NCBI RefSeq assembly: GCF_057098645.1
Contig: NZ_CM169472.1
Length of the DNA: 64,000 nucleotides
Reading direction: 5' to 3' (one strand)
This document shows, piece by piece, positions 10,905 to 24,085 of the stretch. Positions within the stretch are counted from its first letter, which is position 1, and every line of letters begins with the position of its first letter. A program made the translations under genes and the position numbers. The notes beneath the pieces were generated by a model. It ran no database searches and was not told the DNA's origin. It worked only from the letters and a program-made list of their open reading frames with translations.

Positions 10905-10990
10905 GCTAGATGAGGACTGTTTCATTTCTGCCCGGAACCACCAAGTCTTGGGCGGAAAAAATAAAAAAACCGACTGTCATGTCGGTTTTT
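10905..10990 (+). ncRNA. Candidate antisense sRNA (IstR/AgrB-like antitoxin), about 86 nt
   Basis: Starts about 7 nt after the -10; 5' end tgctagatgaggactg (10904-10919) is a direct repeat of 10718-10733, so it is complementary to the toxin 5' UTR; ends in hairpin ccgac-tgtcat-gtcgg followed by a T7 tract. Confidence 0.5.
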
Positions 10991-11055
10991 TTATATCTGT
11001 ATTCTGGTGCAACCATTCTGTTCTCACGACAATCGCCGTTTCAGAATACCGCCCA

Positions 11056-12218: not shown

Positions 12219-13145
12219 TTAACTGCGTGGGTTGCCGAAAATTTCTAAAAATCCGCTGATTTCCGGCCTGCGCTGGGTAAACAAGGTCACAATATCTTCT
12301 ACCGCTTTGCCGCTGCCAAATTTGCGCCATGCCAGACTCAATGGCGAAGGAGGGCGCATCGTTGGGATTACCCGGCTGACCAGTTGTTGATTATCGATCA
12401 TTGACTGGCAAAGCGATTTTGGCAAAAAACCAATGCCAACGCCCGCCAGATGGGCGGCGATTTTCGTTTCCATATCAGGAACAATAATCTCTTTTTGACC
12501 CGGCAATCGCCAGGCGACGCGTTTGGTTAAGGTGCGGGCGCTGTCTTCAATATTGACCGCCGGAAAGCGCCGCAACTGCGCTTCTGTTAGCGGCTCTTCA
12601 ACGTTCGCTAGCGGATGATCCGCCGCCATGACAAAGCGCCATTGCACCGATCCTAAGGGATCAAGACTAAAGGTATTTGCCAGCGCCTCAGTTCCCGTGA
12701 CGCCGATAGCCAGCGAAAAACCTTCGTACAATAGCGAGTCCCAGACGCCCATATAGATTTGTCGGGAGATGTGAAACTGGGTAAAGGGGTAACGCTCATT
12801 CAGCCACGCCAGCAACTGGGCGACGGCCTGGGGGTTATAGAGCTGGTTGTTGATGACAATATTCACCTGGCGTTCCACGCCATCATTCACCTGTTGCAAC
12901 TCGCTGGGCATACTTTCCAGCCAGCTCAGCCAGTCTCTGGCCTGGGAAAGTAGATGCTCGCCAGCCGCTGTCAACGTCACGCTGCGAGTCGTGCGGAAAA
13001 ACAGCGCTACTCCGGTATTCTCTTCCAGAAGTTTAATGCGATAACTGATCGTCGCCGTGGTTTTACATAATCGTTCTGCCGCTTTTGAAAAACTTCCTGT
13101 TTCAGCAACCGCAATGAAAGTCCGCAAGGTTTCTGGATCGAACAT
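12219..13145 (-). CDS. allS: LysR-family transcriptional activator AllS
   Basis: 308 aa; N-terminal HTH; divergent from allA. Confidence 0.85.
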
Positions 13146-13252
13146 CTTCAGGTATCCCCTTTTAAATCCGCAAGTTGCGTGATTTTCTTATCCTCTGATT
13201 TATCAGTATTTTTACATGATAACCCTGTTCAATTTGTGGACTAAATCTAGTT

Positions 13253-13269
13253 TTGGAAAAATATTCCAA
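13253..13269. promoter_or_regulatory. Candidate AllR operator in the allS-allA intergenic region
   Basis: Palindrome ttggaaaa-a-tattccaa. Confidence 0.45.
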
Positions 13270-13374
13270 CTTTTGTGTTGATGTTGTTCTCTTAAGGTTT
13301 TAGATTGCCTGTTATTGAAACCAAGCTGACCGGTCGGCGGTGGTTGAACGGAATTATGTTACAAGGACAAAAAG

Positions 13375-13934: not shown

Positions 13935-14750
13935 ATGACGGAAGTTAGACGGCGCGGCAGGCCAGGACAGGCGGAGCCTGTGGCACAGAAGGGCGCACAG
14001 GCATTAGAGCGGGGAATTGCGATTCTGCAATATCTGGAAAAAAGTGGGGGAAGTTCATCGGTTAGCGATATTTCTCTCAATCTGGATTTGCCGCTCTCCA
14101 CGACCTTTCGCTTGCTGAAGGTTTTACAGGCAGCGGATTTTGTCTATCAGGACAGTCAGTTAGGCTGGTGGCATATAGGATTAGGTGTCTTTAACGTCGG
14201 TGCAGCGTACATCCATAACCGCGATGTCCTCTCCGTCGCCGGGCCGTTTATGCGCCGTCTGATGTTACTTTCCGGCGAAACGGTCAATGTCGCGATCCGT
14301 AACGGCAATGAAGCGGTATTAATTGGTCAGTTAGAGTGTAAATCGATGGTCAGGATGTGTGCGCCACTGGGCAGTCGTCTGCCACTGCATGCTTCCGGTG
14401 CGGGCAAAGCGCTGCTTTATCCGCTGGCGGAAGAGGAGTTGATGAGCATCATTCTGCAAACCGGTTTGCAGCAGTTTACGCCAACTACGCTTGTGGATAT
14501 GCCCACCTTACTGAAGGACCTGGAGCAAGCGCGTGAACTGGGCTATACCGTAGATAAAGAAGAGCATGTTGTAGGTCTGAATTGCATAGCTTCAGCAATT
14601 TACGATGATGTAGGTAGTGTTGTTGCCGCTATCTCCATCTCCGGGCCTTCATCAAGACTGACAGAAGATCGTTTTGTCAGTCAGGGTGAGCTGGTCAGAG
14701 ACACCGCCCGCGATATCAGCACGGCGTTGGGACTGAAAGCACATCCATAG
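13935..14750 (+). CDS. allR: IclR-family repressor AllR
   Basis: 271 aa; N-terminal HTH and IclR effector domain. Confidence 0.9.
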
Positions 14751-14762
14751 TGTCTGTCGCAT

Positions 14763-14787
14763 CCCGCTCTGCGGAGCGGGTTTTTTT
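14763..14787 (+). terminator. Rho-independent terminator after allR
   Basis: cccgctc-tgcg-gagcggg followed by ttttttt. Confidence 0.7.
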
Positions 14788-14802
14788 GACAAAATTTGAA
14801 AG

Positions 14803-14819
14803 TTAGAAAATTTTTCCGA
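14803..14819. promoter_or_regulatory. Candidate AllR operator upstream of gcl
   Basis: tagaaaatttttccgat, half-palindrome gaaaa/ttttc similar to the allS-allA site. Confidence 0.35.
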
Positions 14820-14839: not shown

Positions 14840-16621
14840 ATGGCAAAAATGAGAGCCGTTGACGCGGCAATGTATGTGCTGGCGAAAGAAGGTATCACCA
14901 CCGCCTTCGGTGTTCCGGGAGCTGCAATCAATCCGTTCTACTCAGCGATGCGTAAGCACGGCGGTATTCGTCACATTCTGGCGCGTCATGTGGAAGGTGC
15001 TTCGCACATGGCGGAAGGTTATACCCGCGCAACGGCAGGGAATATCGGCGTATGTCTAGGGACTTCCGGTCCTGCGGGCACGGACATGATCACCGCGCTC
15101 TATTCTGCTTCTGCTGATTCCATTCCTATTCTGTGCATTACCGGCCAGGCTCCGCGCGCCCGTCTGCATAAAGAAGATTTTCAGGCCGTAGATATTGAAG
15201 CAATTGCTAAACCGGTCAGCAAAATGGCGGTTACAGTACGTGAAGCGGCGCTGGTGCCTCGCGTGCTGCAACAGGCATTTCACCTGATGCGTTCTGGTCG
15301 TCCGGGTCCGGTACTGGTGGATTTACCGTTCGACGTTCAGGTTACGGAAATCGAGTTTGATCCTGACATGTACGAACCGCTGCCGGTCTACAAACCTGCT
15401 GCCAGCCGTATGCAGATCGAAAAAGCTGTAGAAATGTTAATCCAGGCCGAACGTCCGGTGATTGTTGCCGGGGGCGGGGTAATCAATGCTGACGCAGCTG
15501 CACTGTTACAACAGTTTGCTGTACTGACCAGCGTTCCGGTGATCCCAACACTGATGGGCTGGGGCTGTATCCCGGACGATCATGAACTGATGGCCGGGAT
15601 GGTCGGTCTGCAAACCGCGCATCGTTACGGTAACGCAACGCTGCTGGCGTCCGACATGGTGTTTGGTATCGGTAACCGTTTTGCTAACCGTCATACCGGT
15701 TCGGTAGAGAAATACACCGAAGGGCGCAAAATCGTTCATATCGATATTGAGCCGACGCAAATTGGCCGCGTGCTGTGTCCGGATCTCGGCATTGTCTCTG
15801 ATGCTAAAGCGGCGCTGACACTGCTGGTTGAAGTGGCGCAGGAGATGCAAAAAGCGGGTCGTCTGCCGTGTCGTAAAGAATGGGTCGCCGACTGCCAGCA
15901 GCGCAAACGCACTTTGCTGCGCAAAACCCACTTCGACAACGTGCCGGTGAAACCGCAGCGCGTGTATGAAGAGATGAACAAAGCCTTTGGTCGCGATGTT
16001 TGTTATGTTACCACCATCGGTCTGTCACAAATCGCTGCGGCACAAATGCTGCATGTCTTTAAAGACCGCCACTGGATCAACTGTGGTCAGGCTGGTCCGT
16101 TAGGCTGGACGATTCCGGCGGCGCTAGGGGTTTGTGCCGCTGATCCGAAACGCAATGTGGTGGCGATTTCCGGTGACTTCGACTTCCAGTTCCTGATTGA
16201 AGAGTTAGCCGTTGGCGCGCAGTTCAACATTCCGTACATCCATGTGCTGGTGAATAACGCCTATCTCGGCCTGATTCGTCAGTCACAACGCGCCTTTGAC
16301 ATGGACTACTGCGTGCAACTCGCTTTCGAGAATATCAACTCCAGCGAAGTGAACGGTTACGGCGTCGACCACGTAAAAGTAGCGGAAGGTTTAGGTTGTA
16401 AAGCGATTCGCGTCTTCAAACCGGAAGATATTGCACCGGCCTTTGAACAGGCGAAAGCCTTAATGGCGCAATATCGGGTACCGGTAGTCGTGGAAGTTAT
16501 TCTCGAGCGTGTGACCAATATTTCGATGGGCAGCGAACTGGATAACGTCATGGAATTTGAAGATATCGCCGATAACGCAGCGGATGCACCGACTGAAACC
16601 TGCTTCATGCACTATGAATAA
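14840..16621 (+). CDS. gcl: Glyoxylate carboligase (ThDP-dependent)
   Basis: 593 aa; position and length match Gcl. Confidence 0.9.
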
Positions 16622-24001: not shown

Positions 24002-24013
24002 ACCTGAATTTAC

Positions 24014-24043
24014 TACAAAAAAAGCCACGGTATAAACCGTGGC
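24014..24043 (-). terminator. Rho-independent terminator after allE
   Basis: gccacggt-ataa-accgtggc hairpin with a T-run on the minus strand. Confidence 0.6.
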
Positions 24044-24085
24044 AAAATCCAACATAGCTAAAAATAATCAGGCGAGTGGTATGAC

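Follow-up and report, generated by a model that had tools for sequence, protein, structure and literature searches.

The 17-bp palindrome at 13253-13269 of the 64-kb stretch of DNA analysed here (the window) is almost certainly the AllR operator that represses the divergent genes allS and allA. This operator is already known rather than new: it was mapped experimentally in 2002 and figures in current motif compendia and biosensors, and the present analysis re-identifies it from raw sequence. Its value is that of a positive control, in which sequence reading located a functional operator at the right coordinates. Beside this intact, textbook site, the window carries a strain-specific degenerate operator upstream of gcl, which is the only mildly new element. 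The genes and the operator are laid out as follows, with gene names taken from the RefSeq annotation of near-identical genomes and, for allS, allA and allR, from Pfam.

12219-13145, minus strand: allS, LysR-type activator (RefSeq annotation; Pfam HTH_1 and LysR_substrate)
13253-13269, no strand: core AllR operator as assigned here, the 17-bp palindrome TTGGAAAAATATTCCAA, centred on A13261
13375-13857, plus strand: allA, ureidoglycolate lyase (annotation; Pfam Ureidogly_lyase)
13935-14750, plus strand: allR, IclR-family repressor (Pfam HTH_IclR and IclR_C)
14840-16621, plus strand: gcl, glyoxylate carboligase, first gene of the gcl operon (annotation)

The palindrome is held in the 229-bp intergenic region (13146-13374) between allS on the minus strand and allA on the plus strand, with its centre 114 bp before the allA ATG; a preliminary description of this DNA had placed it in the divergent allS/allA region, and that placement is confirmed. 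The cognate repressor gene is intact in the same strain, with both Pfam domains present and no amino-acid differences between its product and K-12 AllR, and the AllR effector domain is matched in the PDB by 1tf1, titled 'Negative regulator of allantoin and glyoxylate utilization operons'. AllS differs from its K-12 counterpart by a single residue change, L101Q. A 2.8-kb stretch around the operator was matched in 5404 of 5426 complete E. coli genomes, most closely (99.9%) in E. coli O145:H28 RM12761, in which allS, allA, allR and gcl are annotated and with which the window is collinear across the entire allantoin cluster. In searches of E. coli genomes, two matches to the allS-allA-allR-gcl region fell on plasmids, not chromosomes. 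Within allD, at about 26479 of the window, there is an in-frame 3-bp ATC-repeat length difference from RM12761, the window having one additional unit. Three RNAs scored above the Rfam gathering threshold elsewhere in the window, all on the plus strand: the STnc480 sRNA after glxK (24013-24079), the AgrB antisense RNA beside the dinQ toxin gene (10906-10994) and a tRNA (45497-45570) annotated as tRNA-Arg in RM12761.

The near-perfect inverted repeat reported in the preliminary description is indeed found at 13253-13269, where its arms, TTGGAAAA and TATTCCAA, form 7 of 8 possible pairs around the central A13261 (counted by script); the symmetry stops there, with none further out. Its half-sites, TTGGAA and TTCCAA, are separated by 5 bp and thus form a twofold-symmetric GGAA...TTCC arrangement spaced by approximately one helical turn. 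A repeat search with a seed of 6 and a minimum length of 7 did not return the palindrome because its exact arm runs for just 6 bases before the mismatch. When the window was instead searched with TTGGAAWAWTWTTCCAA, the operator was the sole match with zero mismatches, and allowing up to three mismatches added only the site upstream of gcl, with 0.52 matches expected. The specific sequence of the operator is therefore far beyond chance.

The identity of the site as an AllR operator is carried by its agreement with published sequences. The 37-nt AllR recognition site AAATCTAGTTTTGGAAAAATATTCCAACTTTTGTATT is quoted, from Rintoul et al. 2002, in PMC13300388, and it corresponds to the following region of the window.

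13244-13280, no strand: extended region equivalent to the quoted 37-nt AllR recognition site, 36/37 identical to K-12 (PMC13300388)

The 17-mer, whose K-12 counterpart is at 532,329-532,345, occupies the centre of this region, and the single difference from the quoted K-12 site (A>G at 13277) lies outside the palindrome. The same base is the lone difference from K-12 MG1655 across the whole allS-allA intergenic region (228 of 229 positions identical). The window and K-12 share locus, 17-mer and AllR protein, and their intergenic regions are set apart by that one base, in a host background close to O145:H28; going by the secondary citations, the published site is centred on the palindrome rather than located elsewhere in the intergenic region. 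In addition, the AllR motif has been given as KTTGGAAWAWTWTTCCAAC within an A/T-rich palindromic class that also includes the motifs of IclR, KdgR and SsgR (PMC8222616, Table 1), and the window sequence TTTGGAAAAATATTCCAAC at 13252-13270 fits this consensus at 19 of 19 positions. AllR is documented to bind at two places, the gcl promoter and the control region shared by the divergent allS and allA; glyoxylate acts as its inducer and allantoin as its corepressor (PMC12535856; PMC10163214). AllR represses allS, and glyoxylate derepresses this gene to the level of an allR mutant (PMC12535856). At the operator described here, direct AllR binding, repression of both allS and allA, and release by glyoxylate would follow what the literature reports for the identical K-12 sequence (PMC12535856; PMC13300388).

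Comparison across genera further supports the assignment. Ten loci were collected via AllA homologues 62-91% identical to the window's AllA, from E. fergusonii, Superficieibacter, Enterobacter, Buttiauxella, a Scandinavium-like metagenomic contig, Salmonella, Izhakiella, Budvicia, Yersinia and Serratia. The gene order allS (LysR), allA, allR (IclR), gcl, hyi is kept in nine of these, and all ten have an IclR-family gene alongside. Every locus has a TTGGAA-N5-TTCCAA box, with at most one mismatch, 101-130 bp before the allA ATG, and nine have a second such box 27-35 bp before the gcl ATG; across roughly 75 kb of the ten loci, just one further match was found with up to two mismatches. The identical 17-mer stands upstream of allA in seven of the ten other genera. 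Among genera the operator stays invariant amid flanking intergenic DNA too diverged to align: 14 of its 17 columns are unchanged, versus 12 of 212 columns elsewhere in the intergenic regions (Fisher p = 7e-13). Taking the allA and gcl boxes together, the arms are conserved and the central 5 bases vary. A matrix built from 21 orthologue sites, with the minor circularity that the window's own allS/allA site was among them, scored the allS/allA box at 27.3 bits and the gcl box at 14.3 bits over the 64-kb window, the next site reaching 6.6. Within the species, 5032 of 5403 complete E. coli genomes match the allS-allA control region at 99% identity or more. The AllR-operator call of the preliminary description thus holds up against the published site, the 19/19 consensus fit, the 228/229 identity to K-12 and conservation across genera.

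The locus of Budvicia diplopodorum (locus positions 2734-3500 and 4925-5035) is a case of its own. It is without an adjacent allS, it has no good AllR box at gcl, where the best candidate scores 4.7 bits, and its box upstream of allA, GTGGAAATATTTTCCAA, is located at 130 bp. This suggests that the allA box may be the more persistent part of the regulon.

The operator would act by direct repression that glyoxylate relieves, as follows. AllR, encoded just downstream of allA, is expected to grip the TTGGAA and TTCCAA half-sites through its N-terminal helix-turn-helix domains, and its presence on the operator would switch off both divergent promoters. Repression would keep levels low both of ureidoglycolate lyase (AllA) and of the activator AllS, which turns on the allD and allF operons. 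Glyoxylate, the product of the pathway, would bind the AllR C-terminal domain and cause AllR to leave the DNA; allantoin is reported to strengthen AllR binding. Through the second AllR box, upstream of gcl, the gcl operon would come under the same glyoxylate/AllR switch.

Strict sigma-70 consensus scans found no promoter in either the allS-allA or the gcl control region. A lenient scan yielded several weak candidates, of which those with conservation support are given here together with the gcl box.

13216-13245, minus strand: candidate weak allS promoter; -35 TTTAGT from 13245 to 13240, 18-nt spacer, -10 TATCAT from 13221 to 13216, start at about 13209
13278-13306, plus strand: candidate allA promoter; -35 TTGATG at 13278-13283, 17-nt spacer, -10 TAGATT at 13301-13306, start at about 13313
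14786-14814, plus strand: candidate gcl promoter; -35 TTGACA at 14786-14791, 17-nt spacer, AATTTT at 14809-14814 (9/12 in the lenient scan)
14803-14819, no strand: second AllR box of the regulon, upstream of gcl, in the degenerate double variant TTAGAAAATTTTTCCGA

The candidate allA promoter has 8 of 12 consensus matches in the lenient scan, with both hexamer blocks conserved across genera; the candidate allS promoter is one of several similar-scoring alternatives in that scan, and its blocks are partly conserved. The candidate -35 hexamers begin 7-8 bp beyond the box on either side, and the operator centre at 13261 is predicted to be the exact midpoint between the two promoters, some 52 bp from each predicted start. 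On these coordinates the 37-nt site quoted in PMC13300388 would touch both candidate -35 hexamers. Simple steric repression would not usually act from a site so far (approximately 52 bp) upstream of each start. The gcl-promoter operator shares the TTGGAA-N5-TTCCAA architecture and the regulator but differs in being near its gene rather than between divergent promoters: it overlaps the predicted -10 and start, in what appears to be the classical occlusion arrangement. Many IclR-family operators, which share the twofold half-site logic, are tandem sites bound by tetramers such as TtgV and spaced 18-22 bp centre-to-centre (PMC8222616). Unlike at those sites, there is no second full AllR box at that distance from the allS/allA operator, and a tandem arrangement was rejected, with no other intergenic site rising above the matrix background and the 6.6-bit site, next in score after the gcl box, being far away in the window.

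Several further blocks beside the operator, within 13196-13248 and 13278-13310, are conserved: TGATTTAT, TATTTTTACAT, an invariant TGTG at 13235-13238, AAATCT, TTGATGTT and AAGGTTTTAGATTGCC. Of these, TATTTTTACAT agrees at 9 of 10 positions with the minus-strand half of the operator itself. The right-hand pair fits the allA promoter; on the left, the blocks may represent the allS promoter, auxiliary half-sites or the site of another regulator. Readings of the flanking blocks as sigma-54, CRP or FNR sites gave no fit on inspection.

Near the candidate gcl promoter, a small RNA, AllZ, is annotated in K-12 where it covers the 3' end of allR (window 14553-14787; positions 3130-3364 of the K-12 locus). 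Its end is an intrinsic terminator at 14763-14780 followed by a T-run, just upstream of the perfect TTGACA hexamer.

Could the site belong to a different protein? The paralogous glyoxylate-responsive repressor IclR might bind it instead of or besides AllR, a reading to which we give only a slim chance. The IclR operator of aceBAK/iclR, TGGAAATNATTTCCA, is likewise an A/T-rich GGAA...TTCC palindrome, in the same class as the AllR motif (PMC8222616); the operator core TGGAAAAATATTCCA at 13254-13268 departs from it at 3 of the 14 positions that it specifies, and the IclR effector domain (1td5) is the next-best PDB match to AllR. However, the IclR operator has other central bases, is without the outer T/A positions and serves the glyoxylate bypass regulon, whereas the 19/19 fit to the AllR consensus includes those outer T/A positions and flanks that the IclR motif leaves unspecified. 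Furthermore, in each genus examined the box is accompanied by allR and the all/gcl genes, and regulation here is credited to AllR both in PMC12535856 and in PMC13300388, neither of which reports IclR binding at this site.

Even less probable, in our estimation, is that the A/T-rich block owes its conservation mainly to a promoter role, as an UP element or -35 region of the divergent promoters, with its palindromy incidental. Such a role would agree with the location of A/T-rich sequence just upstream of candidate -35 hexamers on both sides and with the 4/6 resemblance of TTGGAA to a -35 hexamer, but the distance from TTGGAA to the nearest -10-like hexamer is 14 nt, too short for a promoter. 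Moreover, the same box recurs at gcl, in a different promoter context, in nine of ten genera, and conserved arms around five free central bases fit the site of a dimeric protein, not an UP element. That the palindrome is a chance inverted repeat without function has a negligible probability: palindromy alone is weak evidence, weakly beyond chance, because 37 17-mers in the window reach 7 of 8 pairs or more, versus about 24 expected from composition (about 0.08 expected in the 229-bp region), but the cross-genus invariance described above and the exact match to the published operator and consensus refute it.

With the AllR operator as the preferred reading of 13253-13269, the second box of the regulon merits separate consideration. 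The preliminary description had recorded a related half-palindrome upstream of gcl; a related site is present, but it is a full-length 17-bp AllR box, centred 29 bp before the gcl ATG, which looks half-palindromic because this strain carries two arm substitutions. The box reads TTGGAAAAATTTTCCAA in K-12 and TTGGAAAATTTTTCCAA in most E. coli, both perfect palindromes (8/8 pairs), versus 6/8 pairs in the window. The substitutions, one per arm, are 14805 G>A (G3>A) and 14818 A>G (A16>G), at positions that are invariant in all 42 half-sites collected, and the window's 14.3 bits on the matrix compare with 29.1 for the usual E. coli allele. Relative to the nearest genome, O145:H28 RM12761, the first 26.5 kb of the window contain 12 substitutions, two of which are inside this single 17-mer (binomial probability of about 3e-5, a post hoc estimate). 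G3>A alone occurs in three unrelated complete genomes (O157:H7 493/89, MB53 and 7_12_15B). A16>G alone was found by sequence in 95NR1 and O111:H8 8B, with 95JB1 taken as a third carrier from its identical search score. Both changes together were found in none of the 5404 complete E. coli genomes surveyed with a 181-nt query, and a literature search on the gcl box sequences and promoter names returned nothing further.

Judging from the substituted positions, the double variant probably makes AllR a weaker repressor of the gcl operon, with normal control expected to persist for allS and allA. It is conceivable, if rather doubtful, that it amounts to a natural operator-constitutive allele, in which the glyoxylate/glycerate branch (gcl-hyi-glxR-allW-allB-ybbY-glxK) would be uncoupled from AllR with allS/allA still repressed. 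The single changes turn up again in unrelated lineages, most of them of Shiga-toxin type (O157:H7 493/89, O111:H8 8B and 95NR1), a hint that higher gcl operon expression may have been selected for repeatedly.

From Escherichia to Yersinia and Serratia, the comparison cleanly shows conservation of the box, of where it stands with respect to allA and gcl, and of its association with allR. Within E. coli, the gcl operator variant may be relevant to how the metabolism of glyoxylate and allantoin differs from strain to strain.
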